A DNA stretch of 64,000 nucleotides from positions 106,054 through 170,053 of the IMG/VR virus record IMGVR_UViG_3300042544_003795. One strand, written 5' to 3'. Positions within the stretch are counted from its first letter, which is position 1; each line of letters opens with the position of its first letter. Shown here piece by piece: positions 21,384 through 57,012 of the stretch. The notes below the pieces were generated by a model. The model saw only the letters and a list, made by a program, of their open reading frames with translations. It did not search any database and was not told the DNA's origin. The position numbers and the translations under genes are program-made. The stretch is from a virus.

Positions 21384-22001
21384 CTAAATATTTACAGAAA
21401 TTTCTGGAGTTAATTTTAAAGAAAAAATTGGCAATCCTATATGGCTAGTAATACCTAAATCCAAAGCTTCTTTAGCATTTAAATACCAATCTAAATCTTT
21501 TCTTTTATTTAATTCTTTTTTAAGCCATTCTTTATTTTTAGGGCCTTTTAAATGAGAAGAGATTACTTTAAGTATTTCTTCCTCCTCTTTCATTAAAGCA
21601 TTAAAAAATTCTTTTTGCTCACTAGCTCTTCCATCTGGGATAGAAGAAACCTGAATACCATGCAGCATTAAACCTGCATATTCTCCCATGAAACGAAAAC
21701 CTTCATCCCCGAAACAGAAGACAAAAGCTCCAGCAGAGGAAGCTTCACCAGCCGTCATTGTAGCAATCTTTAAACCTTTTTTCCTAGCAGAATAAAGGAT
21801 AGAAAGAATAGCTTTTAAAGATGAGATATCTCCTCCGGGAGACTCAATATGGATAGGAAAAAGTATTTGCTCCAGTTCTATGGCTTCATTGATTCTATTA
21901 CTTAAAGCTTTTACAGTTGTTGAAGAAAATTCTGTTAAGTAAAAACTTCTAGGCCCGTTTATTCCTTGAACAAAGTTTGGAGCATTTATATCCCATTTCA
22001 T
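21384..22001 (-). CDS. ClpP/crotonase-fold serine protease
   Basis: IESPGG, ASSAG (nucleophile Ser), LMLHG, DWYLNAKEALDLG. Confidence 0.82.
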   Translation of the reverse strand: MKWDINAPNFVQGINGPRSFYLTEFSSTTVKALSNRINEAIELEQILFPIHIESPGGDISSLKAILSILYSARKKGLKIATMTAGEASSAGAFVFCFGDEGFRFMGEYAGLMLHGIQVSSIPDGRASEQKEFFNALMKEEEEILKVISSHLKGPKNKEWLKKELNKRKDLDWYLNAKEALDLGITSHIGLPIFSLKLTPEISVNI

Positions 22002-40756: not shown

Positions 40757-43700
40757 CTAACCTGTTGTTGCTGGAGGCGCTTTGGTAGGAGGAGCAGCTG
40801 GAGGCGGTTTCCCCGCTGCACTAGCCACTTCTCTATTATGCTGTTCAACCATACCTATAATAGATGGTTTTAATTTTTCTATCATTTCAGGTGTAATCCC
40901 TTCTCCTGTTATATTCACACTTATCTGAGATGTAGTATTTACATTCGTAGTATTTACAACTCCTTGAGCACCTTGAGCGTTTTGACCTTCAGCTGCACCT
41001 TCTGTCGCGGCTCCTTGAGCATTAGTAAGTCCAGTCACAGCATCTACAAGAGGTTTTATAACTGCTCCTAGTTTATTCTCTTCCTCTTTTGTTTGAGCTA
41101 TTTGTTTTTCTATTTGAGCTTTTTTACTCTTTTCATCTTTTACGTTTCCAACATTATTTAAATCTTCAAAAGTTTGACCTTCTTTTTTTGGTATAACTTT
41201 ATTATAAGCATTTTTCAAAGCTCCACCTGTTTGTTCATCGGCCTCCTCTGCTGTAACCTCTCCTCGTATAAACTTATTAATGAAATCTGATTTTTTTCCG
41301 TCATTATCCGGCCCCATATCAGCCATTGCTTCAAAGCCTACTTTACTTCTATCTCTTCTTTTCGCCTCTATATCTGCTATATTTTTATTTATAGGATCTA
41401 ACTGAGCTTCTTGATCTTGTCTCTCTACAACTTTAGCATTATAAGCTTGAACTTTTTTCTTGTCTTCTGGTTTTTGTATTTGATCCATGATAACAGGAGC
41501 TACTTGACCTTTAAATAGTTCATTGTTTATAGCTCCCATGTTCTGATCTGTAGCCCGAGCTACATCTTCAGTACCTTTTTTTACTTCACCTCTTAATTGG
41601 GTTTCTTTTTCAGTATTTTTAGCTTTAGCCTGTAGCTCTTTCATTCTCTCTCTTTTCACTATATCCAAACCATCTTGTGGATCTGCTAATATTTTTGTAT
41701 CAGTCGCTTCTCTTGATTCTAATTCAGTTTTTCTAGCAATCTGTCCTTCACTAAGAGGCCCCATACGATCTAACTCCCTTAAATCTTGAAGCTCTAATTT
41801 ATTGTCTTTAGCTTCTTTTCTAGTGTCTAATGTTTTTGCATCTGTAGCCTCTGTTAATTCTAATTGTTCTTTTCTTTTTTTATCACTATCAGTAAGAGTT
41901 CCGTAAGGCTCTTTAGCTCTTAAAATATTAAGTTCTTTTCTATTACTTTCAGCTTTATCAAAACTTCTAGTTTCATCTTCAAGACCAGTAAGTTCTGTTT
42001 TTTCGTCTGCTGTAAGAGTTTTTCCTTTAAGAGAATCTAACTCAGTTTTCTTTTTATCTAATTTTTCTATTTTTGCAGCTACACCTTGTAAATTTTTATC
42101 TTTGCTACCTTTCAATTTAGCTACATAAGAAGCTCTTACTTTAGCAGGATCTTTAGCATCAGCTTTCTTTTGGGCCTCAGCTATCAATTGATCTTCTGAT
42201 AAAGTTTTTTCATCTGTTTCTATTCCTTTTCTTAAGTCCGCTATTTTACCTTTAGGATCTAGTCTTGCTTTAAATTCTCCAAGTTTTTTCTTTTTATCTC
42301 GTATATCTTTAGGGTTTACTCCTTTCCATGGTTCGAAATCCGAATAACTTGTTAGCTCCATATCAGCTGAAGATGTAGCCTCTAGTTCCGCCTTTCTTTT
42401 TTGTGATTGTTCGGAAAGATTAGGTATCTTATTCAATGCTTCTAGTTCTTTTATATTACTGACAGATTTATCGTAAGCTGTAGTTTCTTTTTCTAAACTG
42501 GTAAATTGATTTGCTTCATCAGCAGAAAGCGGATTAACTTTCTCAAGAGATTTGATTTCATCTTTTTTAGCTTGTATTCCTTTTTTTAATTCTTCTGGAT
42601 CTCTTGGTGGTCCGACTCCTCTTCTAGATTGCAATAATTCAAGATAACCTTTTGGATCTGCCATTTGAGCTTGAGCAGTAACACTTTTTATTTTATTATC
42701 AAGATCAATTTCTTTTTTAGCAGCCATATTAGCTTTCAAAGACTCTTCTTCTTTTTTTCTTTCTTCTGGTGTTAATGGAGTTAATTGCTCTTTTCCATCC
42801 TTTCCTTTCCTCATCACTCCGTTTTTAAGGTAATCTTGATTCTTTTTTATATTTTCGTCTATTTGCGCAGCATCTTGTAAAGGAGCTGTTCCTCTTTGTT
42901 TCTCTAAAGATTTTAAATATTGAACCGGATCTTCAGCCAATCCAGCTTTTACTCTTGCTGTTTCAGATTTATTTTTTATTCTAGCCGCAGTATTTTCAGC
43001 TTTATCTGATTTAAAACCGGCTAACTGTTCTTGTGCTTTTTTTACTTCCTCGGGAGACATTTTAACTCTTTCGATTTTTCCATCTTTACCTTGTACCTGT
43101 CTCCCTTCTCTCAAGTCTTCCTCAACTCTTTGAATTCTCTCATCATCTTTTTTACCATCTCCTAAAACTTTTGCTGTCTCTTCTAATCCCTGAAGTCTTT
43201 TTACATTTATATCTGTTTCTTGAGGAGTTTTACTTTTTGTTTTAGCTGGTAATACAGCATCTTGAGTTAAAAATTTAGAACTTTCAGTATTGTAACTTTC
43301 AGCAGCAGATATAGCGGCATCTATTCTTTCTCTCTTCGCGGCTAAAGTGGTATCAGATCTTTCTATTTCTTTTTCAAAATTTCGACCCGCATCTTTTTTT
43401 CTTTTAGTTAAATTACTTATCTGATTATCCTCCAGAGTAGTATCTAAACCCTGTTTAGCTTTTGCATCTTTTTTAGCTTGAGCCTCTTTAATTCTTTTTT
43501 CCACTGATACCTCATCCTCTTTAAAAGAGAATCCAGAGCTTTCTACTTGTGAAATATAAGCATTTCTAGCTGAGATTTCTTCTCTCGATCTATCGTTTCC
43601 TCCTTCATCCATTAGAGTAGATGCTTTTAAATTTTCAAAATCAGTTTCTGTAGCTTTTCCGCTTTTCATCCTTTCTTGAAAACTTACTAGATCATCCATT

Positions 43701-46700
43701 ACAAAATCTTGTTTAAGTGTGGCAGCTGTACCAGTATTTATTGTTCTCTGGTAATTTAAAGGAGTTTTTATTTTTTCAACAGCTTTTTGATTATCTATAA
43801 TTCTTTGTGGTTCACCTGCCTCTGCTACACTTCTTTCTTGTCTAAGCTGTACGTTTTTCGCTTTTTCAGCTTCAAAACTTTTATAATCTTGTGTTTGAGT
43901 TACCGCAGCTGATCTTCTTAATATATCAGCTTGTTCTGACCCTCTACCAGTTAATGATTTTGCAGTTATATTAGCTGTCGAGCTTGCATAATTAGGCATA
44001 GCGGCGGAGCTAGGATTCATTGATGTGTTAGTTGCTGCAACACCACTACTAGGAACAGTTGTAACACCAGCTCCAGCTACGCTAGGAACCGTTGGAACAC
44101 TGGCTCCAGCTACGCTAGGAACAGTTGTAACGCCAGCTCCAGCTACGCTAGGAACCGTTGGAACACCAGCTCCAGCTACGTTAGGAACCACTGGGAATCC
44201 AGCTCCAGCTGCGCCTGCACTCGCAGCTATTGGAACATTTGCTCCGGCTGAAGCTGCCATTTGGTTATTATTAGCAAAAATGCTATTTACTCCACCAACT
44301 CCTTTTATTTCTCTAGCAAAACTTTGAACAGTAGAATCTTGAAAATAAGGATTATTAAATTTTTCATCTAACATTCTTTTAGATTCATCTGCTCCTGATC
44401 CTCCTATCTGTATACCTTCTGTAATTTTTTTTATAGATGCATCGGAAAAAATACTACCTTGATTAGATTTTGCTCTAGCCTTATTTAAATCCCTCAATTT
44501 TTGGCCTATATCATCTGCCATAGTTTTTTGCAACTGTGCTTTCCCGGATCTTTCCTCGTTAGTTCTTTTAACTACATTATCTTTGCCGTATCTTTCAGCT
44601 TGAGCTTGTTCATCTTCATATTTAATTCTATCATTCTGCATCTCTAAATTTGATGCTTCGACTAATAATTTTCTTCCTGTTTCAGTCTCTCCTCCGCCTG
44701 ATCTTTCAGCTTTATCTCTTAATTTTTGTATTTTAGCATCTGTCTCTAATACTGCCCCAGTATTCATAAGTTTTTTAGTATATTGAGGGGGACCAGCTAA
44801 AGCACTTTTACCTATCTCAGCTAAATTCCTTCTTTGAGATTCTTTTAACTGGTCTTGAGATATTGTATTTATAGATCTTAAGCCATCGGCTTGATCTATT
44901 CTTAATTTTTCTATACCTAGTACAACTTCTTGATTTATATCAGCTATTTGGGATAAGATTTCTTTTGAGCCATCTGATGATCCTAAACTTTGCTTTATAA
45001 GACCTTCTAAAGATGAAAGATCTCCCCCTCCTTTTAATACAGAACTAGCTTGATTAAGAATATTTGATCTTTGTTCTATAGAAGCATTTTTTGGAATTAA
45101 TGCTGTAAGCTGCTCCACTGCTTTAGAAACTATTTCAGTGCCTTTCTTTTCAGCATCTAAATTTAAGTCTTTTGTTTGAAGACTAGCTTGTCTATTTATA
45201 CCCTCAGCTTCAGTAATTCTTCCCGATGCTCTATCCGAGTCTAGTCTGCTTTTTTCTATTGATAAATTAGTTCCCGCTGTTGAAAAATTCTTATAGTTTA
45301 TCAATGCTGTATCTAAAGTTAAACCTTTCAATCCTTCATCAAAAACTTTTTGGAAGTCTAAGCTAAACCCTTGTATTCCTGTTTGCACAGTGTCATTCAG
45401 ATTTTTATTAAAAGTCAAAAGCGCAGCTGCATATTTATCCATACTTTGTATAGAGCTATCTGTGAATTCTTTATTTAAATCTCCATAAGTTTTACTCGCC
45501 ATTTTTACTTGAGACTCAGTTAGTCCTAACTCTGAACCGAATTGAGTTATAAAATCTCCCATACTTAAAGTCCCATTCCCCAATTTATCTATAGCCTCTG
45601 AAGCTTCTTTGGATTTAACTTTAGTAAAATCTATACTATCAATAATAGGATTTAAAAATGTGTCAAAATCTTCTGTTTTGAAATCTGAAGTTTTAGTTTT
45701 GTTGCCAAAAACACTAACATTTTCTTCTCTAGATTTCTTTATTATCTCAGAAGTAACCAAATTCCCTTGACTAAAATTCAGATCTTTACTCTTCTTTTCT
45801 TGAAAATTTGCTATAGCTTCTTGTTTTTTTAAATCACTTTTTTCATTTAATATCGTAGAAATTAATTCCGGATCTTTAATCCCTCCTAATGATTTAGCAA
45901 ATGTGGATTGAGCTTTAGCTATCTTTTTTGGATCTCCTCCTGAAGTTTTTAATTCAGAAATTTCATTTTGAGATTTAATAGCTTCTTGCAAAGAAGTAAT
46001 TTGAGATTCAGTGGATTGAATTAATTTTTGGTTGTTATTAGTCAATTCCAATGTAGATGGAACAGCAGCTTTAGTAGCTTTAGTGGCATAATTAAAAGCC
46101 CCTGCGAGAACCCCTACAATAGGGGCAATAGGAGCTAGAGCCGGAACCATAGCTACCATCATTGCGGCTGAAGCTCCAGCTGCGATAGATTCTCCTATAT
46201 TCTGAACCTCCTTTTGAGCCTTTGTTTGCTCTTTTCCTTCCTCCGGCGTTGAAAACATCCCAGTTACAGTAGAAGCAGTAAAGGCTAATCCCATCATTTT
46301 TGCATTGATAGCTCCAGCTTTTGCTGCTCTTTTCTCTTTTTTCTCTTGTTTGAGTTCTTGCGGAGTTTTTGTTACTTTATTATCTGAATCGGGTAGATCT
46401 CCGCCCATAGGCATTCCTCCTCCCGCAGGCATTGCTCCTTGTTTCCCCCCCCCTTGTTGACCTCCTCCTTGCAAAATTCCACCTTTCTGGTTCGCGTTTA
46501 GTTCTTTTTGTTTAGCAAAATCAGCTTTGTATTCTTTTCTTATTGAACGTGATTCATTGTTTACGCTTCGTAATCTATTAGCTTTAGCTTTTCTTGCATC
46601 TTTTTCTACTTGAAATCTGTTCTCTATTTGAGTTCTTGGAAAACTTTGCATCCCTTTTCCTGCCCCTTGTATACCTTTCGTAGGTAAAATCGGAGATCCA

Positions 46701-49700
46701 AGCTTACCTCCGGGAGTCATAATCCCAGCTGCCACTGATCTATTGTAAAGTCTATCAGCTCTGATAGAGTCTGCTTTTCTATTCCTTTCTTCTGATCCTA
46801 CAATTTGACCATCTCTATTTCTGAACAATTTGCTTTGCCCTTGTCCTCCTTTTTTAAATGTATTTTCAACACCTTTCGCTCCTACTCTTCTTTTATTAAT
46901 TCTATCTTGAGTAAGATTTTTTAATATCTCTTTTCTACTTACAAACTGGTTCTGTGCTGTAAGAGTCGGCTGATATCTCCCCGGAGCTTGAGGTAGTTTA
47001 GCCATCTGCGCTTTAGCATTAGTGTAGTCAATTTTTATATTTCTCCTTTTTCTATCAGCATTAGCTTTAGCATCTCTTTTAGCTTGATCTTGAGGGGAAA
47101 TGCCTGCTTTTTTGATAGGCGCAGCATTTGTGCGAGAAGCTTTTTTTTCGGCTTCAGCAGCTTTTCTTTTAGCTTGGTTTCTTTGAAAAATTTCTCTTGT
47201 AGCTTGAAAAGATCCTCCTAAACCTGATCTTAGACTACTGGGCAAAGCAGGTCTAGCTCTTACGGCTGCTACTTTTTGTTGAGCAGCTTGAGTTTTATCT
47301 TTTTTTTCCTGATCCTTGTCTGCATTCTTTTGTTTTGCTTCATTTCTTTTCCTTATTTTCTTTAAAGCTCTTTTCTCTTTGGGAGTCGCAAAATTAGGAA
47401 TGAAACCTTCAGAAGAGGAATTAGGATTTTCTCTTGAAAAGCGAGAGCTTAAATAATCATCCACAGTTGGCACTATAACGCTCAAAGCTGTTCTGAGAGA
47501 AGGTAGATTGGCTCTTTGGACTGATGTTAATAGATTTCCTGTACTATATTGAACTTGATCTAAAACTTTTTTAAAAAATTCTATTTCATCAGAAGAAATG
47601 TCGGGAGCTCCATCTATTTGAGATATAAGAAGTGATAAAGCATTTGTAGAAGTAGGAGTATTTAGCATACTTCTAATTTTTAAAGCCAATGGACTATTAG
47701 CCGCAGTTTTTACTTTAGAGGCTCCTTGTCTTACCCTGTTCATTAATGAGGGTCTACGAACAGGAATTTCAAAATTAGGAATAAAACCAAAAGCTGAAGT
47801 TCTGCTTACCAATCCGCTTGAACTATCTCCATAAGTTCTTTTTGTTGTAGGCTCTATTTTCGCCATTTTGGCGAAACTCATCCCCTTGGATAAAGTCTTT
47901 TCGTCCTTGTTAAAAACTGCAAGACCTTTTGGGTTAGATTTTGTTTTTAAACTAGCTCTTCTCCCAATCTTAACATCTTTTCTTTCAAAACCCGCACTCA
48001 TTTCCGCGTTTACGGATTCATTTAAAGCTTTTCTTTCTTGTGCATAAGGAATTTTTGCAGGGGAAAGCCGAGAAAAGAAATTAGGAATAAAGCCTTTTGC
48101 AAAAGAAGTCGGTTTACCTCTCAATCCTAATCCTTGAATACTATATCCTCTACCTCTTTTTTTATTTGGATTTTTAGAACCCCTTATATCGTCACTTTTT
48201 TCGTCAAATCTTTTCGATAGGGGAATTAAATTTCCGTCATCATCATACTCTACTAAAGCAGCTGATTTGATTTGTGAGGCATTCGGAACAACTAGCTCAG
48301 AAGACATAGTTTTTTCTTGAAGTGTTCTTCCTGCTATTCCCCTTATTGAGTCATAGGGTATTTTACCCTCCTTCATTAAAATAGCTGTACCTATTTTGTA
48401 TTTTTCATTTTTTGCACTTCTTGATCTTAAAGTGGAAAGAAGCAATGAACGATTACTAATTTTAGCTATTTCTTCAGGACTTAAGTGGCCGTATTTGCCG
48501 AGTTTAGCGTAAGCATCATTGATAGCTATCTCATAATTGACTCTAGCATTTAAATAAGGCATAAACTCATCAGGCAAATTTCCCGTTAAAGGTTTTTGAG
48601 CTTTTACATATACTTCGTCTTTCCTAAATTGAACATCACTAGCTTTTAATCCTAATGCTTTGAGTCTGTCTTCATGTGGTTTTGAATTTACAGATACATC
48701 TGACCCACCAATAGATAAAGAAGCATCTTCAGCAGTATAATATCCCGGACCAAAATTTAGATCTTTAATCTCTGAACGCAACGGAACCCCTTTATTATAA
48801 AAACCTAATCTAACCCCTTTTCTATTGTATGGGGAATCTTGAGCTTCTTTTTCAACCATCTTCTTCAAAAGATCTGTATTATTTTTCTCTACAGCTTCTT
48901 TATACATTTTATCTTTTTCTGAAGAGAAATCAAAAGCTGGAGTTTTACTTATTTTAGCTAAACTAGATTCAACTTTTTCTCTTCCGTATTTTGCAATTAA
49001 GAAGTCATAAGTTTTTCTATCTATATTTCTGGCAAGATTCTTTCCAGATTTTTTATTTCCAACAACGTCTCTAAAAAATGTTTTGTCGGAAGCAAGAGAA
49101 GGAGTTGCGAAATTAGGAATAAAACCTCTTGAATTAGTTTTTTTGCTATACTCATTAACTTGATTTTTTAAATTTGGATCAATTACATTTGTATATCCGG
49201 CATCTATAATAGTAGCTTTACCTCCAGATTTAACAAACTTGTCGTATAAATCCTGACTTGATTCAGGTACTTTATAGTACTTAACATAGTCCTTAAGCAA
49301 ATTATTTTTATTTTCTTCAATAAATTTTCGACCTTGAGGATTTAAAGTATAATTGGCCCCATGAAGGTCATCCATTTCCAACCCAGCTTTTTTTAATCGG
49401 GCTTGCAAAATACGCCCGAAAACTCCAGAAGCCGCTATACCAACAGAGTCACGAGCCATTGGTTCTTTAATGATCTCTTTCCGAATGCTTTTAGCTCGCA
49501 ATGCTCTTTCTAAATTATCTGGAATTTTAGGTCCTGTAATTCCGTCAACTAGTCTTTTTTCAGCTAATAATTTTGATACTGTAAACTCATCTGTTATTGT
49601 TTTTGGTAAATTAGATTCAGATTTGACGTTTGCTGTTTTTGTGTCTTTTTTTGTTTCAAATCCTGCAAAAATTCCAGCTGACGAAGAGGGTTTTCTATTA

Positions 49701-52700
49701 TAAAATCTTTTTACCCCTATATCCTTAGTTAATCTATGAAATGTTCCTTCTGCTCCGCCACCCATAAAAGAAGATTGGAGTGCAAAATTAGGAATAAATC
49801 CTTCAGAAGCGGACATACCTTTAGATCTGGGATCTATACCTTCTTTTTTAGCTAAACCCATTCCATTAGCTAAAGTTCCTTCATACTTATTATAAGTGCC
49901 AAAACCTTCTGGATTAAAAGGAGTTCTTAAAGAAGGGTTTTTACCCATTCTTATTTTTCCGATAGGTATTCCAGCTTTAGCTTCTTTGGCTCTAGATTTC
50001 TTTTTGGCATTTTGAGTTTCTTTATAAGAAAGTTTTGAAGCAAAATTAGGAATAAAACCACTTGATAAAAAACGCTCTAAACCATTTTCTCTTAGCACTT
50101 GTTCTCTAGTCTTTTTTCTTCCTCCAGTGTTTCTCGGTTTATTATATCTTGCGGACAGAATAGCTTGAACCCGATCTTCATCAGATAAAGGAGCTATTTC
50201 ACTAACAGGCATATTTCTATCCTGTACATCAGTTGGTAATTGTCTTTCTGTTAGTATCTGTTGCTGAATTTTCTTATAACTGTTTGTAGTTTTCCTTGCT
50301 CTACTTCCTTGTCCTGCTAAATTAGCCGCCCATTCTTGAACTTTCCTTTCATCATCGGATAGAGGACCTGTTTCTATAGCAGGCATATCACTGTCCGGTA
50401 CACTCATCCTTTCAGGATAGGCATTCATTGTCATTCCAACTTCTTTACCCATGTTAGGTAGATCCCTCGCCCTAGTGGAGCCCTGAAAACGTAACTTTGG
50501 AATAACTATTTTAGGAACAATTCTTTTACCATTTACTATCTGTGTTAGAGGTCCGGCATTAGTTTGTCTACGAGTTATTGGATCAATATCATTTAAATCA
50601 GGGACAGCTATATAATTGGTTAATTTTATTCTGTCGTATTTATCTGGAACGCCTTCTGTAAAAAGGGGTAAAAGCATTGGACTTAACTCAGCTATATTTT
50701 CAGGAAGAAATCTCCCATATTTATCTCCAACTTTGGGAGCTGTCCAATCTCCAGCTTTAGCTTCAAGTAAAGAGATTTCTTTATTTTCTATAGAATCTAT
50801 TGAGAATGCATCGACTGCGTTATTGCCTTTATTAAATCCGGTGTTTCTAGTCGGAATAAATTTAGGGCCTACTTTTGTTTTATTGGCTTGCTGTATAGCG
50901 TATCTTTCAAAAACTCCAGTATAATCAGTTTGATCTACTTTGCCATCTTTTCTATTTTTATCTTTAAAGCGATAAGAATCTGGAGCAGATTGCAAAATTG
51001 AAGACATTAAATTTCTTCTTGAGCCCCCTTTATCAGGAATCTTAACTTGAACTTGTTCAAAAGAAATTGTACTAATTTTATCATCAAACTCAACATTTTT
51101 ATTGCCTCTAGACTGAGCTAAAGCAAATTGATTCGCAGCATTTACATTATTAGGTAAAAATTGTGATATATCTATATAATCATCAGATTCATCAATTTTA
51201 CTATTTAAATTAACATTCTTTTTACTCTTCGACTTAGGATTATTTATTGGTTCATCAATTATATCATCGACATAATCATCTGTTTGCAGAGCCTTGTACA
51301 TCCTAGTCGCTCTATCTAATATTCTACTTCCAGAATCAGATTCTTGTATTCTCTTTCTTTGTTTCCTAAGCGCTCGTATTTCGTCGGCTTGTTCTGGAGG
51401 GGTTATATTTTTTCCAACTGTATATATTTTTGGTGGAAGCTCTCCTAGCCGTCTATTTATTTTATCAATTGCTTTATTCTTTTTTAGAGAAGTTCTTCCC
51501 ATTGTTTTATCAATAAATGCGGTCCTATTTTGTATTTGAGGTAAATTAGCTATTAAAAGATCTTCTGACCCTCCCGCAGCTAATCTCCTAATTCCTTTTG
51601 TATCTCCTTCTCCAATTGCTTTTCTTAATTCAGTTCCACTTATACCCTCAGTCCTAGCGTCCTGCACCACTTGTAATCCCTTTTCTGTATATTTTGCGGT
51701 TTCATAGAGTCCCTTATCGTCACCTACTAATGCAATACTTCCGGGAGTAGGGCTTAGATATCTTCCGTCTGACACTTTAAAAACAGAAGGTATTCTACCT
51801 CTGAATTCGGAAGACGGAATAACTGTTGTTTTGGCTCCAGTCGCTTTTTTTATTAATTGTCTTCTAAGACCTATAGGAAAAACTGAGGTACGATAAGAAT
51901 GTTTATCGCCTTCCTTAAGTGTAGCTCCAGAACTAACTCCGAATACTATATTCTCTGGTTCGAAACCTAACGAACGAGCTTGTGTAAACATTTCCTTATG
52001 CCCTTCCGTAAATGGGGCAAAAGCTCCATATGCGAATGCAATTTTCTTCTTTTCAATATTAAGTTGTTTTTTAATTATAGATGTTTTATCACCTTCTCTT
52101 TGCAATCTTGCGACAGGAACACCTTTATTTTCAGCCACTGCGGCTATATAATTAGGGTCTTCAGGATTTTTTCCTACAGTTTCTAGTAATGATTTCCCAG
52201 ATCTACCTTGATTTGCTATTGGGTTATCACTAGCTGCTCTTTTTTTAGCAGACTTTATTTGATCTTCTCTGGATATTTGTAGAGAAATTAGCCTATCTAC
52301 TCCTCCGAAAAGTCCTTCTTGTAAACTCCTTTCAGCATTTGACTGGGAAGCTTTTGTAGCTACGACTTCATCAACTTTGTCAATGTCTGACTCTTGTAGA
52401 ATTGGTATTCGAGTCGTTTTTCTAAATTTACTATCATCGCTCTTTTTTGGTATGCCATATTTGTCTGCATTAAATGCAAGAGAAGTTTTTCCTGACCCCG
52501 GAGCACCATAAATTCCAGTAATTCTTTTTAAACCTCCGGTTTTTCTTTTTTGCATAGCATAATTACCTAAATGCTCCCAATACTCATGCGTTTTTGAGTT
52601 GCCAAGTCTTTCCATTTCTGAATTAACTATCTGTGCGTATTCAGGATTAGCTAAAACATCGCCATCTAATATACCAACTCTTCTAGTAATTTCTGCAAAA

Positions 52701-55700
52701 TTCGGAATAAAGCCTTTGCTTGAAAAGTAAGAAGGAAGAGCCGCCGTAGAATTTTCTTGTCTTTTAATTAATGTGTATGGCTTTTCAAAAGATATAGGTT
52801 CTTTGATTTTATTTTTGAAAAATGGAAACTTTGATCTTTTATCTGTTTTTGGCAATTCTAAAGCTTTGGTTTGTAAAGCTTTTGAAACCAAATTATCTCT
52901 AGTTATTTCTCCCGCTTTAACTTCTGCTATCCCCTGCCTCTTTGAATTGATTATGTCCATTCTTGCACCTTTACCAGTTGCTAATACAGATGCTTCTTTA
53001 TTTATTTCATTAAACGCTCTTTGTCCTGTTTTCTCAAACATATTCCCACCTACTTTAATAGCGAATCCATTTATTTGATTTTCGATAGAATCATTCTTTT
53101 CGCCTTCTATTAAAGGCATAGATGAGTCTTTAACTTCACCACGATTTCTTAAATTATCAATTAATAATTTTACCCCATCTTCAGTATATCCATTTTTTAG
53201 GCCTATATTAGTTATAAATTTTGCTTTATCTTCTGTAAATTCTCCTGCAAGTTTTTTCTTTATGCCTTTGATATAATCCGGAGTATTTAATGATACAACA
53301 TTATATTTTAAATTTTTTATAGTATCAACACCAACATCTGCAACACGAGAAGATTGTTCTCCTGAAATTTTACCTGAATATTCGATTGATTGTAATTGTC
53401 CATCATCATTTTTATTATATTTACTTATATCCTTTTTTTTAATTTTTCCTATTCCTTTTCCCCTCTCCAAAGAGGCTTTTGCGAAATTTGGAATAAAGCC
53501 TTTGCTAAATGATCTACGTTTATATTCGTTAATTTTTTCCTTTGCTTCTTTGCTTCTTGCTTCTGCCATGCCAGCGTCCACAATAACAGCTTTGCCTCCA
53601 GCCTTTACGAAATCTTCATAAAGTTGGTTATCTGAGTCATATGATGCTCCCGCTCTACGCGAAGACAAATAATCTAAATGTTTTTTTAAGAAATCTTGAC
53701 CTTTGGCGTTTACACTGTAATTTTCGCCAATTAGATCGCTCATAAGTACGCCAGAATCGTACATCTTACCCTCTAATATTTTTCCAAAGCCATTCGATGC
53801 ATCCCTTCCAATTGACTTAATAGCCATTGGATCTTTTATTATTTCTTTTCTAATACTGCTTGTTCTTACGGATCTATCTAATGTGTCTGGAATTTGAGGT
53901 CCTGTAACCCCCGGAATAAGGTTGCCTTCCGATAAAAGTCTGGATATCGAATATTCCCTTGTGACTTTATCTTGTATTTCTCTTCTACTTTGGTTTTTGT
54001 AAAATCTTTTTACGCCCACACCTTCTGAGAGTTTATGAAAAGAACCTTCTACTCCTCTTCCAATCTCCCTAGAGGTTTTTACGAAATTTGGAATAAAGCC
54101 ACTTGAACGTAATACCCCATTCGAAGACACTTTAAATTGTTCTTGTTCATAAGGGTTTATACCAGTTTTTTTAATAGACTCTTCTTTATGTTTTTTACCC
54201 CCTTTTGAATTTGGAGGTGGATTAATAAAATATTTTTTCTTAGATTCTGGTACAAAACCTTTGGAATTATTTGATGGTATTTTACTTGCTGTTTCAGCAG
54301 TATTCATGACCCCACCCACAGGAGAATTAACAACAAGTCCCGAAGCATAACTGGAACTTAAAGCTCCTTTTTTTTCTGCCATTTTTACTTCAGGAGAAAA
54401 GCCATTAGAATAAGTCGGGATATAACCTTTTGCTTTATTTTTTCCTCTTTTATTAGCTGCTAATCCTACTGTAACAGCTTCACTTACCTGAGCTATACCT
54501 TGTCTTCTAGCCATACTCATCATTAATTCTTCTAAAATCTGTGTTTTCTCTACTAAACTTGTAGTTGTCGCTAATCTATCTACTAAGCCTTTATTGCCCA
54601 TCAATATAGCTTTATTAACTGACAGTTGCATTTTTTCATCAACTAGAGAAGCTTTTTTCAAACCGGATAAAGCCTGAACTGCTGTAAAAGCATCTTTCGA
54701 AATTTTAAATAATAATCTACCAATAATACCTATTAATAAGTATGCCCCCGGCCCAGCTAATGCAGAACTTATACCATTAAGTATAACTTTGCCTATTGAA
54801 AGTCCTGCCTTTTCACCTCCATCCGCTGCTGCCCCCAAATTAAGAGTGTCTAATATTTTATTGCCAATACCCACAAAACTATCTAAAATAGGTTGTACAG
54901 TTACTTTTCCTGTTTCTGCTAAAAATTGAGTAAGATTATTCTTTAATTTTTGCAAATTAGCATCTGTAGTCTCTGTTAAGATTTTTAATCTTTCAGCTGC
55001 GTTTCCAGAAGAATCAGAAGCTACTCTAACAGCTTTATCAAATAAACTATACTCTCCATTTAAAGACTTTAATGTTGCTTGAAGAGTATTGATTTGATAT
55101 ACTCCGGCTACTTGTTCAAGAACGAATGCCCTTTGACTATCTGATAAACTGTCTAATTTATTAGATAAATTCGTAAGGACTTCAATTTGTGATTTAAATT
55201 CTCCATTAGAATTTTCAGTAGCTATGCCTATATTATTTAATACCTCTTGAACTGATGTTCTAGAAAGTCTAGTAAAAATTGTTTTTAAGCCGTTGGATAT
55301 AACTGGAGCTCCCCGAGCAGAAACCTGTTGAACTACAGATATCAAAGATGCAATTTCTTTTAGTTCTATACCAGCTGCACTAGCTACGCTACCAACTCTT
55401 TTTAAACCGTCAGATATTCCAGCTGCACTAATTGCGAATGCATTGTCAAGAGAAACAATACTATCTACAACATCTTCATAAGTTAAAGCTTCATCGGTGA
55501 AAGTATTTATAGCAGCTGTTAAATTCTCAACAGTTTGAGCCGCATCGGTTCCAGCAATTTTAGAAAAAGCAAGAGCGGCATTTGTAGCCTTCAATGTCTC
55601 TTCTACTGACAAACCCTGCCTAGCAAATTCAGAGGCAGCTGCGGCGGCCACATCGAAACTCTGGCCTGTAGCATTAGCAACCTTAAAAAGCTCTGATGAA

Positions 55701-56044
55701 AATATCTGTAAATTAGAATTAGATGTTTGTAATATAGCTTGAATTCCAGCTAATTGCTTTTCAAGTTTTACAGAGTCTGTGAAAAGTCTTGTAAATGCTG
55801 TGGCTAATCCATAAACGACTGTGGTTGTAGCTGTAAAAGCTAAAACTCTAGCGGTAGCAGCATCTAAACTGCCTGAAAACTTATCGAAATCACCTGTAAT
55901 TCTGCCAAGGGGCAAACTTCCACCTTTTAAATTTAGATTAAAACCTTTCTTTTCAAACAGATCTCTACCTTTTTTATGGGTAGTCAGAATAGCTGCATCT
56001 GCTTTATCTGTATATATTTGTAATCCGTAATTAATTTCGTCCAT
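40757..56044 (-). CDS. Giant tape measure protein with internal enzymatic cargo domains (5095 aa)
   Basis: N-terminal TP901-type TMP core (AASEFARQGLSVEETL..., FAISAAGISDGLKRVGSVA, NGLKTIFTRL); follows the tail tube and chaperone genes; hydrophobic segments and long coiled coil in the C-terminal part. Confidence 0.88.
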   Translation of the reverse strand: MDEINYGLQIYTDKADAAILTTHKKGRDLFEKKGFNLNLKGGSLPLGRITGDFDKFSGSLDAATARVLAFTATTTVVYGLATAFTRLFTDSVKLEKQLAGIQAILQTSNSNLQIFSSELFKVANATGQSFDVAAAAASEFARQGLSVEETLKATNAALAFSKIAGTDAAQTVENLTAAINTFTDEALTYEDVVDSIVSLDNAFAISAAGISDGLKRVGSVASAAGIELKEIASLISVVQQVSARGAPVISNGLKTIFTRLSRTSVQEVLNNIGIATENSNGEFKSQIEVLTNLSNKLDSLSDSQRAFVLEQVAGVYQINTLQATLKSLNGEYSLFDKAVRVASDSSGNAAERLKILTETTDANLQKLKNNLTQFLAETGKVTVQPILDSFVGIGNKILDTLNLGAAADGGEKAGLSIGKVILNGISSALAGPGAYLLIGIIGRLLFKISKDAFTAVQALSGLKKASLVDEKMQLSVNKAILMGNKGLVDRLATTTSLVEKTQILEELMMSMARRQGIAQVSEAVTVGLAANKRGKNKAKGYIPTYSNGFSPEVKMAEKKGALSSSYASGLVVNSPVGGVMNTAETASKIPSNNSKGFVPESKKKYFINPPPNSKGGKKHKEESIKKTGINPYEQEQFKVSSNGVLRSSGFIPNFVKTSREIGRGVEGSFHKLSEGVGVKRFYKNQSRREIQDKVTREYSISRLLSEGNLIPGVTGPQIPDTLDRSVRTSSIRKEIIKDPMAIKSIGRDASNGFGKILEGKMYDSGVLMSDLIGENYSVNAKGQDFLKKHLDYLSSRRAGASYDSDNQLYEDFVKAGGKAVIVDAGMAEARSKEAKEKINEYKRRSFSKGFIPNFAKASLERGKGIGKIKKKDISKYNKNDDGQLQSIEYSGKISGEQSSRVADVGVDTIKNLKYNVVSLNTPDYIKGIKKKLAGEFTEDKAKFITNIGLKNGYTEDGVKLLIDNLRNRGEVKDSSMPLIEGEKNDSIENQINGFAIKVGGNMFEKTGQRAFNEINKEASVLATGKGARMDIINSKRQGIAEVKAGEITRDNLVSKALQTKALELPKTDKRSKFPFFKNKIKEPISFEKPYTLIKRQENSTAALPSYFSSKGFIPNFAEITRRVGILDGDVLANPEYAQIVNSEMERLGNSKTHEYWEHLGNYAMQKRKTGGLKRITGIYGAPGSGKTSLAFNADKYGIPKKSDDSKFRKTTRIPILQESDIDKVDEVVATKASQSNAERSLQEGLFGGVDRLISLQISREDQIKSAKKRAASDNPIANQGRSGKSLLETVGKNPEDPNYIAAVAENKGVPVARLQREGDKTSIIKKQLNIEKKKIAFAYGAFAPFTEGHKEMFTQARSLGFEPENIVFGVSSGATLKEGDKHSYRTSVFPIGLRRQLIKKATGAKTTVIPSSEFRGRIPSVFKVSDGRYLSPTPGSIALVGDDKGLYETAKYTEKGLQVVQDARTEGISGTELRKAIGEGDTKGIRRLAAGGSEDLLIANLPQIQNRTAFIDKTMGRTSLKKNKAIDKINRRLGELPPKIYTVGKNITPPEQADEIRALRKQRKRIQESDSGSRILDRATRMYKALQTDDYVDDIIDEPINNPKSKSKKNVNLNSKIDESDDYIDISQFLPNNVNAANQFALAQSRGNKNVEFDDKISTISFEQVQVKIPDKGGSRRNLMSSILQSAPDSYRFKDKNRKDGKVDQTDYTGVFERYAIQQANKTKVGPKFIPTRNTGFNKGNNAVDAFSIDSIENKEISLLEAKAGDWTAPKVGDKYGRFLPENIAELSPMLLPLFTEGVPDKYDRIKLTNYIAVPDLNDIDPITRRQTNAGPLTQIVNGKRIVPKIVIPKLRFQGSTRARDLPNMGKEVGMTMNAYPERMSVPDSDMPAIETGPLSDDERKVQEWAANLAGQGSRARKTTNSYKKIQQQILTERQLPTDVQDRNMPVSEIAPLSDEDRVQAILSARYNKPRNTGGRKKTREQVLRENGLERFLSSGFIPNFASKLSYKETQNAKKKSRAKEAKAGIPIGKIRMGKNPSLRTPFNPEGFGTYNKYEGTLANGMGLAKKEGIDPRSKGMSASEGFIPNFALQSSFMGGGAEGTFHRLTKDIGVKRFYNRKPSSSAGIFAGFETKKDTKTANVKSESNLPKTITDEFTVSKLLAEKRLVDGITGPKIPDNLERALRAKSIRKEIIKEPMARDSVGIAASGVFGRILQARLKKAGLEMDDLHGANYTLNPQGRKFIEENKNNLLKDYVKYYKVPESSQDLYDKFVKSGGKATIIDAGYTNVIDPNLKNQVNEYSKKTNSRGFIPNFATPSLASDKTFFRDVVGNKKSGKNLARNIDRKTYDFLIAKYGREKVESSLAKISKTPAFDFSSEKDKMYKEAVEKNNTDLLKKMVEKEAQDSPYNRKGVRLGFYNKGVPLRSEIKDLNFGPGYYTAEDASLSIGGSDVSVNSKPHEDRLKALGLKASDVQFRKDEVYVKAQKPLTGNLPDEFMPYLNARVNYEIAINDAYAKLGKYGHLSPEEIAKISNRSLLLSTLRSRSAKNEKYKIGTAILMKEGKIPYDSIRGIAGRTLQEKTMSSELVVPNASQIKSAALVEYDDDGNLIPLSKRFDEKSDDIRGSKNPNKKRGRGYSIQGLGLRGKPTSFAKGFIPNFFSRLSPAKIPYAQERKALNESVNAEMSAGFERKDVKIGRRASLKTKSNPKGLAVFNKDEKTLSKGMSFAKMAKIEPTTKRTYGDSSSGLVSRTSAFGFIPNFEIPVRRPSLMNRVRQGASKVKTAANSPLALKIRSMLNTPTSTNALSLLISQIDGAPDISSDEIEFFKKVLDQVQYSTGNLLTSVQRANLPSLRTALSVIVPTVDDYLSSRFSRENPNSSSEGFIPNFATPKEKRALKKIRKRNEAKQKNADKDQEKKDKTQAAQQKVAAVRARPALPSSLRSGLGGSFQATREIFQRNQAKRKAAEAEKKASRTNAAPIKKAGISPQDQAKRDAKANADRKRRNIKIDYTNAKAQMAKLPQAPGRYQPTLTAQNQFVSRKEILKNLTQDRINKRRVGAKGVENTFKKGGQGQSKLFRNRDGQIVGSEERNRKADSIRADRLYNRSVAAGIMTPGGKLGSPILPTKGIQGAGKGMQSFPRTQIENRFQVEKDARKAKANRLRSVNNESRSIRKEYKADFAKQKELNANQKGGILQGGGQQGGGKQGAMPAGGGMPMGGDLPDSDNKVTKTPQELKQEKKEKRAAKAGAINAKMMGLAFTASTVTGMFSTPEEGKEQTKAQKEVQNIGESIAAGASAAMMVAMVPALAPIAPIVGVLAGAFNYATKATKAAVPSTLELTNNNQKLIQSTESQITSLQEAIKSQNEISELKTSGGDPKKIAKAQSTFAKSLGGIKDPELISTILNEKSDLKKQEAIANFQEKKSKDLNFSQGNLVTSEIIKKSREENVSVFGNKTKTSDFKTEDFDTFLNPIIDSIDFTKVKSKEASEAIDKLGNGTLSMGDFITQFGSELGLTESQVKMASKTYGDLNKEFTDSSIQSMDKYAAALLTFNKNLNDTVQTGIQGFSLDFQKVFDEGLKGLTLDTALINYKNFSTAGTNLSIEKSRLDSDRASGRITEAEGINRQASLQTKDLNLDAEKKGTEIVSKAVEQLTALIPKNASIEQRSNILNQASSVLKGGGDLSSLEGLIKQSLGSSDGSKEILSQIADINQEVVLGIEKLRIDQADGLRSINTISQDQLKESQRRNLAEIGKSALAGPPQYTKKLMNTGAVLETDAKIQKLRDKAERSGGGETETGRKLLVEASNLEMQNDRIKYEDEQAQAERYGKDNVVKRTNEERSGKAQLQKTMADDIGQKLRDLNKARAKSNQGSIFSDASIKKITEGIQIGGSGADESKRMLDEKFNNPYFQDSTVQSFAREIKGVGGVNSIFANNNQMAASAGANVPIAASAGAAGAGFPVVPNVAGAGVPTVPSVAGAGVTTVPSVAGASVPTVPSVAGAGVTTVPSSGVAATNTSMNPSSAAMPNYASSTANITAKSLTGRGSEQADILRRSAAVTQTQDYKSFEAEKAKNVQLRQERSVAEAGEPQRIIDNQKAVEKIKTPLNYQRTINTGTAATLKQDFVMDDLVSFQERMKSGKATETDFENLKASTLMDEGGNDRSREEISARNAYISQVESSGFSFKEDEVSVEKRIKEAQAKKDAKAKQGLDTTLEDNQISNLTKRKKDAGRNFEKEIERSDTTLAAKRERIDAAISAAESYNTESSKFLTQDAVLPAKTKSKTPQETDINVKRLQGLEETAKVLGDGKKDDERIQRVEEDLREGRQVQGKDGKIERVKMSPEEVKKAQEQLAGFKSDKAENTAARIKNKSETARVKAGLAEDPVQYLKSLEKQRGTAPLQDAAQIDENIKKNQDYLKNGVMRKGKDGKEQLTPLTPEERKKEEESLKANMAAKKEIDLDNKIKSVTAQAQMADPKGYLELLQSRRGVGPPRDPEELKKGIQAKKDEIKSLEKVNPLSADEANQFTSLEKETTAYDKSVSNIKELEALNKIPNLSEQSQKRKAELEATSSADMELTSYSDFEPWKGVNPKDIRDKKKKLGEFKARLDPKGKIADLRKGIETDEKTLSEDQLIAEAQKKADAKDPAKVRASYVAKLKGSKDKNLQGVAAKIEKLDKKKTELDSLKGKTLTADEKTELTGLEDETRSFDKAESNRKELNILRAKEPYGTLTDSDKKRKEQLELTEATDAKTLDTRKEAKDNKLELQDLRELDRMGPLSEGQIARKTELESREATDTKILADPQDGLDIVKRERMKELQAKAKNTEKETQLRGEVKKGTEDVARATDQNMGAINNELFKGQVAPVIMDQIQKPEDKKKVQAYNAKVVERQDQEAQLDPINKNIADIEAKRRDRSKVGFEAMADMGPDNDGKKSDFINKFIRGEVTAEEADEQTGGALKNAYNKVIPKKEGQTFEDLNNVGNVKDEKSKKAQIEKQIAQTKEEENKLGAVIKPLVDAVTGLTNAQGAATEGAAEGQNAQGAQGVVNTTNVNTTSQISVNITGEGITPEMIEKLKPSIIGMVEQHNREVASAAGKPPPAAPPTKAPPATTG
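44049..44212 (-). repeat. 33-bp coding tandem repeat (about 5x AGAGVTTVPSV) in TMP
   Basis: Repeated unit ccagctccagctacgctaggaac... with 33-nt period. Confidence 0.85.
47390..54100 (-). repeat. Dispersed GFIPNF peptide repeat, 9 exact copies in TMP
   Basis: Copies at 54083-54100, 53483-53500, 52697-52714, 50042-50059, 49784-49801, 49109-49126, 48077-48094, 47771-47788 and 47390-47407; degenerate GYIPTY (~54410-54427) and GFVPES (~54243-54260). Confidence 0.95.
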
Positions 56045-56137: not shown

Positions 56138-57012
56138 TTATGAATTCTTAAAAGACTCAGCTGCATTTCTTAATGAAGATGCTTCTGCTTGTTTATTAGG
56201 TTTATTTTTATTATTCATTTCTGTTATAAAAATTCTTTCAATCTCGTCCGCATCATTTCTTTCTTCGTCTGTTATATTTTCTGTTTTTTCTAATAAAGAT
56301 ATAAAATACTTTGAATAATCAAATAAGGTTAATTGATTCTGAGTTAAAAGATAACCATTTTTATTAAAATAAGATTCTGGATTAGAAGAATTTTTTATAT
56401 AATCTCTAACATTTTTAAGAGCTGACAACTTTCTTATATTAGATGTAGAAAATAAATCTAAACAATCTTTATAGCAATCAACAACTTCGTAAAGTTCTTG
56501 GTCACTGAAATCTATAACATCTTCAATCTCAAATACTTTATTTTCTAATTTTTCATCTTTATAAAAACTTAAATGTAAAATATATTCAGTAATAGGCCCA
56601 TTAGATAATGTTTCTGCTGATAAATTTAATAAATTTTCTTTTTTAGATAACAAAGAGTTATAAGATTTCCTATAATCTGTTATTATATTATCTATTTCAT
56701 CTAATTGCTCGTCAAACATAGCCTTAGATCTTTTTGATAACATTAATTGAATGTTACTACTTAAAGATTCTAAAGTCTTCTCTTGTTCTTCAGACCATAA
56801 ATTTTCTTTAATTTTTTTATCCAATAAGTCTTTCTTACTTAAAGCACCTTTAGCTTTATAGTTTTCTATAGACTTAAAAGTATAGTCATCAATAAGAGCG
56901 TACTCTATTGAACCAAAATGTTTTAAATATACTTTTTTTTTAAAAAAGTCTCAGAATACCCACGGCAAATATCAAAATAAATGCCGCCTGTATTTATGGC
57001 TTTGAATTCCAT
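56138..57012 (-). CDS. Tail-assembly-chaperone-region protein, requiring a -1 frameshift near 56932-56947
   Basis: ATG at 57012 opens 29 codons ending ACT TTT TTA AAA AAA AAG TAT ATT TAA; the -1 frame is open from there into ORF 56138..56824. Confidence 0.6.

Follow-up and report, generated by a model that had tools for sequence, protein, structure and literature searches.

An enzyme cassette punctuated by a GFIPNF motif in the tape measure proteins of a phage clade, and its possible processing

The stretch analyzed here (64,000 nucleotides (nt), positions 106,054 to 170,053 of IMG/VR virus record IMGVR_UViG_3300042544_003795; hereafter the window) contains the gene of a tape measure protein (TMP) of 5,095 amino acids (aa), in the interior of which a series of enzyme-like modules is punctuated by the hexapeptide GFIPNF. 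A sequence-only reading of this DNA had proposed that GFIPNF is a cleavage or docking signal, by which a set of enzymes packaged in the tail is released as separate effectors at infection. The motif is the mark of a whole TMP clade, and the breaks in homology and the swaps of cargo between its members fall at the motif. The cleavage role is indirectly supported by a match in register to the maturation cut site of T5 pb2.

Results

Layout of the tape measure gene

The protein is recognizable as a TMP by its Pfam PhageMin_Tail domain (aa 123-314, E 1.7e-30) and by matches to PHROG TMP families (best E 3e-38). The gene is real and not an assembly artefact, since 41 contigs, the longest of 170 kb, carry a recorded copy of 5,095 aa that shows 3 differences. 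The parts of the query TMP, in order of translation, are as follows.

40757..56044, minus strand: TMP gene, open reading frame (ORF) of 5,095 aa
54428..56044, minus strand: N-terminal TMP core of the TP901-family/PhageMin_Tail type, aa 1-539, conserved
54410..54427, minus strand: motif 1, variant GYIPTY, aa 540
54101..54409, minus strand: S0, small unit of the "first" subfamily, 103 aa
54083..54100, minus strand: GFIPNF copy 1, aa 649
53501..54082, minus strand: M1, protein-kinase-like by sequence comparison, paralogue of M5
53483..53500, minus strand: GFIPNF copy 2, aa 849
52715..53482, minus strand: M2, PD-(D/E)XK-type nuclease by motif only, FE..D..E.K pattern kept in homologues
52697..52714, minus strand: GFIPNF copy 3, aa 1111
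50060..52696, minus strand: M3, 879 aa, comprising three enzyme domains that the motif does not separate
~52115-52696, minus strand: P-loop NTPase domain of M3, conserved P-loop
~51485-52057, minus strand: HxGH nucleotidyltransferase domain of M3, NMNAT-like neighbors in the PDB
~50555-51187, minus strand: second PD-(D/E)XK nuclease, in M3, catalytic-type residues kept
50042..50059, minus strand: GFIPNF copy 4, aa 1996
49802..50041, minus strand: M4, small unit, invariant E2021 and E2055, near-invariant N2052
49784..49801, minus strand: GFIPNF copy 5, aa 2082
49127..49783, minus strand: M5, protein-kinase fold, PRPK/Bud32-, Rio2- and WbdD-like
49109..49126, minus strand: GFIPNF copy 6, aa 2307
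48095..49108, minus strand: M6, possible ART-PolyVal-like ADP-ribosyltransferase (ART) module, a lead only
48077..48094, minus strand: GFIPNF copy 7, aa 2651
47789..48076, minus strand: M7, small unit, paralogue of M4
47771..47788, minus strand: GFIPNF copy 8, aa 2753
47408..47770, minus strand: M8, 121 aa, family unknown, shared with P0006 alone
47390..47407, minus strand: GFIPNF copy 9, aa 2880
40760..47389, minus strand: C-terminal TMP part, aa 2886-5095

The core carries a weak hydrophobic segment (aa 420-438), and the C-terminal part, of which aa 3250-3900 are conserved in close relatives, carries a hydrophobic segment at aa 3295-3313. Neither GFIPNF nor a canonical A-x-G-G module was found in the C-terminal part (aa 2886-5095).

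The GFIPNF motif marks a TMP clade

The nine exact copies reported by the sequence-only reading, and the module lengths that it gave, were recovered; about 6e-5 copies are expected from composition, and a six-frame scan of the window found none in other frames. The two degenerate copies that it added fared differently: GYIPTY at aa 540 stands, with relatives having the motif at the equivalent place, whereas GFVPES at aa 597 was rejected as a family copy, since it sits in an insertion unique to the query among the aligned rows shown.

Among homologues found with the core, the motif is present in 59 of 59 close ones and absent from 17 of 17 distant TMPs. In all, 205 proteins with 1-14 copies each were collected; the TMP core was recognized in 192, and the remaining 13 look like fragments without an N-terminus. 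A scan of viral-contig DNA returned 118 stretches, mostly within long ORFs and largely of the same TMP clade. Matches to the TMP core in INPHARED are only 24-28% identical, and none is a cultured member of the clade. Nearly all of 28 matches in genome collections lie on contigs of metagenome-assembled genomes of many unrelated taxa, some of ~200 kb (L360-L386), and these occurrences are probably mis-binned phage contigs, from which no host was assigned. Six of the distant TMPs without the motif (P0071-P0076) carry PF14890, some also PF07591 or PF05203, which we take to be intein/Hint families and thus another self-processing route in TMPs.

The clade consensus is (A/S)-x-G-[FY]-[IV]-P-N-F-(A/S). 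Selection had been ascribed to the peptide on the basis of synonymous codon variation among the copies, and both the variation and, in the main, the conclusion hold: across 266 copies, synonymous codons are used at close to background frequencies, whereas four residues (G, P, N and F) are nearly fixed in about 1,550 instances (G and P being fixed by the search pattern itself). The motif always keeps the reading frame, and its spacing is aperiodic, ranging from 8 to >800 aa. At the DNA level, the nine copies in the query are slightly more alike than codon resampling predicts (identity 0.889 vs 0.846, p 0.02) and are detectable as 30-nt direct repeats, and the motif DNA probably also serves as a crossover point for cargo swaps.

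Next after the motif comes A or S in 74% of cases and L, F, W, Y, R or K in 5.6%, compared with a background of 30% for the latter; such a small residue, rarely destabilizing under the N-end rule, fits a stable new N-terminus. The position of the motif outside folded domains, which the proposal called for, is borne out by the AlphaFold2 model of M5, in which both motifs mostly have a predicted local distance difference test (pLDDT) score <50.

Modules are exchanged at the motif

Variation of the cargo between conserved flanks had been put forward as a check, and it was found: the eight nearest relatives, with cores 72-77% identical, differ in the number and order of their modules. In P0002-P0009 the core spans 542-544 aa and the cassette 550-1,365 aa, against 539 and 2,340 aa in the query, and the full TMP length in close relatives is 2,806-5,095 aa. 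Cutting 167 proteins at the motif yields 595 modules, which form 171 clusters; 114 clusters have a single member. For M1, M5 and M6, homologues mostly start just past one motif and stop just before the next. When the motifs are masked, 74% of all alignment ends lie no more than 15 aa from a motif, compared with an expectation of 15.5%, and in a stricter, cargo-only comparison 46.5% lie within 20 aa (18.5% expected). Furthermore, M4 shares 90% identity with a unit of P0009 while the two cores share only 76%, a sign of recent exchange.

Cargo modules

The kinase-like assignments of M1 and M5 are upheld by the protein-kinase fold and the catalytic Lys, Glu, Asp-x4-Asn and Asp-x-Gly, which are invariant in M5. 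The M5 model, with core blocks mostly at pLDDT 83-98, matches PRPK/Bud32, WbdD and Rio2 kinases (kinase fold E 5e-5). In M3, the P-loop and HxGH transferase assignments hold; the P-loop is conserved, and the nearest solved relatives of the HxGH domain include nicotinamide mononucleotide (NMN) adenylyltransferases, with weak E-values. As to the PD-(D/E)XK assignments (M2 and the end of M3), the residues are kept as claimed; the assignments rest on motifs, without a database match. The ART-like call for M6 is reduced to a lead from two weak matches, one to ART-PolyVal at 0.87 and one to a PF18760 protein that matches 12% of M6; no direct Pfam match to M6 was found. Overall, the catalytic residues of the cargo enzymes are intact.

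The modules had been described as mutually unrelated, which is not so for two pairs: the kinases M1 and M5 are 37.5% identical (E 1e-44), and the presumed spacers M4 and M7 36% (E 5e-10).

Modules of relatives add matches to GNAT, GHKL ATPase, DUF7178, endonuclease and metalloprotease families, one of them to a PHROG metalloprotease; most modules match nothing. The TMPs P0033 and P0041 have precomputed Pfam matches to PF23802 (DUF7178) with PF26092, and to PF00565 (SNase), which widen the cargo list. A candidate decayed motif inside M3 (aa ~1627) was discarded, as it aligns to the conserved nuclease interior. Two 54-nt copies, 78% identical and 174 nt apart, lie in the low-complexity tail of M3 (window 50175-50402).

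A conserved small unit

M4 and M7, previously taken for short spacers, are in fact a conserved, predicted-folded domain, and together with S0 form one family of about 65-100 aa (~75 aa typical), with a pLDDT of 70. Two Glu are invariant and one Asn nearly so in the M4 subfamily, and other subfamilies keep an equivalent Glu and an Asn/Asp-x-Glu/Gln pattern. The unit occurs in 182 of 203 proteins, as first module in 104 and as last in 144, and most arrays thus run from the core through a unit, the cargo and a further unit to the C-terminal part. The internal position of M4 suggests that the query TMP arose by joining two arrays. A profile of the unit retrieves 1,140 cluster representatives at E ≤ 0.001, and among the 150 matches listed all are large proteins.

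Searches with the model of the unit gave no clear fold match (BFVD E ≥ 0.3; PDB best Z 3.5; Atlas TM ≤ 0.50), and a sequence search of the PDB gave no match. Complex prediction of the unit with a motif peptide scored 0.03, which gives no verdict and is not used as evidence. In a single lineage (P0077, P0079-P0081 and P0085-P0088) an extra small unit lies in the C-terminal 100-500 aa, where others have a lambda-type module.

Relation to TMP maturation cleavage

In T5 pb2 (PMC10038345) and lambda gpH (PMC12617516) the TMP is cut beside an A-x-G-G module and a fragment is kept in the virion; in pb2 the cut falls after R1127 and separates a muralytic motif from the rest (PMC10038345). The sequence at this site is FVPR↓AEGG (arrow, cut), and the common TMP A-x-G-G module starts exactly at the cut. 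In an hhalign comparison the T5 site aligns, at a probability of 91% and E 1e-6, with an A-x-G-G module for which 98 sequences of unrelated phages were combined. A search for homologues of lambda gpH returned near-identical copies only. GFIPNFA matches, in register, the upstream half of the T5/lambda-type site (hydrophobic-Pro-x-[RFY]), while the G-G after Ala is absent.

Among the 205 proteins of the clade, at least 76 have a lambda-type module of their own. At [FY][AS]xGG sites within the clade, G at -5 together with I or V at -3 occurs in 33%, compared with 1.7% of control sites, and a position-specific scoring matrix of the motif applied to the residues before these sites gives p = 1.6e-26, a value inflated by related sequences. 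As the element near the C-terminus (n=189), the canonical module is found in 99 proteins, the GFIPNF motif in 36, both in 1 and neither in 53. The upstream match in register, this exclusion at the C-terminus and the small residue after the motif together predict a cut between F and A. Most likely, the motif is the site of TMP maturation in multiplied form, and the predicted cut would fall after its second Phe (F↓A), in register with R1127↓A of T5 pb2. T5 and lambda have one cut near the C-terminus, whereas the TMPs of the query clade have up to 14 candidate sites in mid-protein.

Discussion

Proposed mechanism

We propose that the TMP carries a processed cassette of injected effectors, freed by cuts at the motif, and give this reading a probability of roughly 0.5. 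Its first element is observed: a modular enzyme cassette lies between a conserved core and the C-terminal part, fenced and shuffled at the motif. From what is known of TMPs, the chain would be threaded unfolded into the tail tube, so that the enzymes would be kept from acting in the cell that makes the phage; this would also account for the lack of adjoining immunity genes. Cuts at the motif would then take place at tail maturation or ejection, with the pieces staying in the tube as do T5 pb2C and lambda gpHC. Ejected ahead of the DNA, the pieces could refold and immediately target the proteins, nucleic acids and nicotinamide adenine dinucleotide (NAD) metabolism of the host, presumably for takeover or counter-defense.

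The best candidate for the cutter or its recognition site, on speculative grounds, is the ~75-aa unit with its two invariant Glu. A more specific and doubtful version is that this unit is an autoprotease, or the recognition half of one, that cuts all motifs at F↓A and frees interchangeable anti-host enzymes, the A-x-G-G module of T5 and lambda being its counterpart. If true, a self-processing unit would identify the long-unknown catalyst of TMP maturation.

Several findings weigh against the processed cassette. It adds 2,340 aa to the ruler, a cost without explanation. At ~0.15 nm of tail per TMP residue, the full query chain implies a tail of about 760 nm, compared with about 420 nm for the shortest close relative, although P23-45 shows that a TMP of such a size with an enzyme fused to it can exist (PMC10770324). 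Not all domains are fenced, as the three enzyme domains of M3 have no internal motif, and a recognized small unit is missing from 21 of 203 proteins. Only about 4 tree switches underlie the mutual exclusion at the C-terminus, and the 53 of 189 proteins with neither element there include the query. Hybrid PNF-A-x-G-G sites are not enriched (11 vs 10.4 expected). Profile comparisons of the small unit with canonical modules of the lambda type, of the T5 type and from within the clade reached no significance (best E 0.02-0.06), and its homology to the canonical T5 and lambda module is not demonstrable. Lastly, the cut site and catalyst in lambda are unknown, as is how TMPs are cut (PMC12617516).

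Alternatively, the chain may stay uncut, with the motif serving a structural or docking role toward a tail chaperone, the tube wall or neighboring TMP chains, and with the enzymes working while tethered to a membrane-anchored TMP, as was proposed by its authors for the RNA polymerase of P23-45 gp96 (PMC10770324). The cassette lies between two hydrophobic segments and could hang as one cytoplasmic loop, the two aromatic residues and Pro of the motif would suit a binding peptide, and a search beside the TMP found no dedicated protease gene; however, this reading is opposed by the match in register to a site where cutting is proven, by the small residue that follows the motif and by a spacing unlike that of a structural repeat, and an uncut carrier appears somewhat unlikely. 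Excision of the cassette during tail assembly, with the enzymes acting late or being packed in the head and the remaining parts setting tail length, would spare close relatives (2,806-5,095 aa) tails that differ two-fold in length, and T5 and lambda each have a TMP that is indeed cut during morphogenesis (PMC10038345, PMC12617516). Lambda gpH, however, is cut only after it has measured the tail, and the fragments of both phages remain in the virion (PMC10038345, PMC12617516); moreover, a very long tail is in fact set by a TMP of 5,002 aa that has an enzyme fused to it, and late-acting enzymes would need no fusion to a TMP. We regard excision before packaging as improbable. We consider it very improbable that the motif is a recombination footprint only, its DNA kept as a crossover site for module capture and its peptide without a role: the direct repeats, the slight excess of DNA identity and the breaks of swaps at the motif are as such a footprint would have them, but near-background synonymous codons beside nearly fixed G, P, N and F, and a frame that is always kept, are not.

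If the processed cassette is correct, the tail lumen would join the known ways in which phages stow enzymes for use as soon as infection begins, and the 171 clusters from 167 proteins would hold well over a hundred distinct candidate modules for takeover or counter-defense, cut to domain size by the motif. TMP cutting also becomes testable with a protein that has ten candidate sites and a small Glu-containing unit.

Comparison with known systems

Each ingredient has a precedent: TMPs that bear enzymes, TMP cleavage and polyvalent cargo. A repeated delimiter combined with shuffled cargo and a dedicated small unit is described in none of the papers searched, nor was the string "GFIPNF" found in any of them.

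Polymorphic toxins (Rhs, MuF and the effectors of contractile injection systems) likewise have variable enzyme cargo that follows a conserved junction motif, joined to a delivery part that is itself conserved. They differ in having a single variable C-terminal tip, whereas the query has multiple internal cargo modules and a C-terminal part conserved in close relatives, and in having an adjacent cognate immunity gene, whereas at five loci of the query clade the same neighbors recur and there are no variable small flanking genes.

Polyvalent proteins of phages and conjugative elements (Iyer et al. 2017, PMC5512222) likewise string many unrelated conflict enzymes in one virion-linked chain that is predicted to be delivered early and processed. 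The query TMP shares one feature of this type, 2-15 unrelated effector domains in a chain that varies between relatives, and its kinases, nucleases, nucleotidyltransferases and possible ART-PolyVal-like module (from weak leads) may belong to the polyvalent repertoire. The paper nowhere mentions TMPs, its retrieved passages contain no repeated delimiter, which is a feature of the query clade, and it proposes zincin metallopeptidase domains as processors, none of which was detected in the query TMP.

The TMP-RNA polymerase fusion gp96 of Thermus phage P23-45 (5,002 aa; PMC10770324) is also a TMP of ~5,000 aa with a cytoplasm-type enzyme, proven there. In gp96 one N-terminal enzyme is conserved in relatives and thought to be tethered (PMC10770324), whereas the query has many swappable internal modules and a delimiter.

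Genome context

The window belongs to a large phage genome, which has genes for ribonucleotide reductase, DNA polymerase III alpha, ThyX, a helicase and a primase, and a ClpP-like gene. The latter (21384-22001, minus strand, 205 aa) lies among non-structural genes and below all family cut-offs. It is not favored as the cutter of the TMP, being distant from the tail genes and below the family cut-offs; ClpP is also no site-specific processor.

The TMP gene is placed in a tail operon after chaperone-sized genes, an arrangement that L359, L388 and the P0005 contig repeat in both gene order and gene size, and is directly followed by a gene of 521-565 aa in 5 of 5 loci examined; database searches returned no names for the neighboring genes. 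The gene just upstream of it (window 56138-57012, minus strand) starts with ATG at 57012 and stops after 28 codons, and a -1 shift in a T6-A9-G run (56932-56947) joins this short frame to a long ORF, giving 290 aa. The break recurs in L359 and L389 and is implied by the gene calls in the P0005 contig, so a homopolymer error is less likely; the gene is continuous at 290 aa in L388, and continuous in distant relatives. The break is a candidate for a programmed frameshift or slippage at the tail-chaperone position.

Between window positions 786 and 27668, on the minus strand, the ORFs include a glycosyltransferase, an epimerase/GDP-mannose dehydratase, a dATP/dGTP diphosphohydrolase and PRA-PH domains (only the first ORF being mapped individually), which possibly form a DNA or virion modification pathway.

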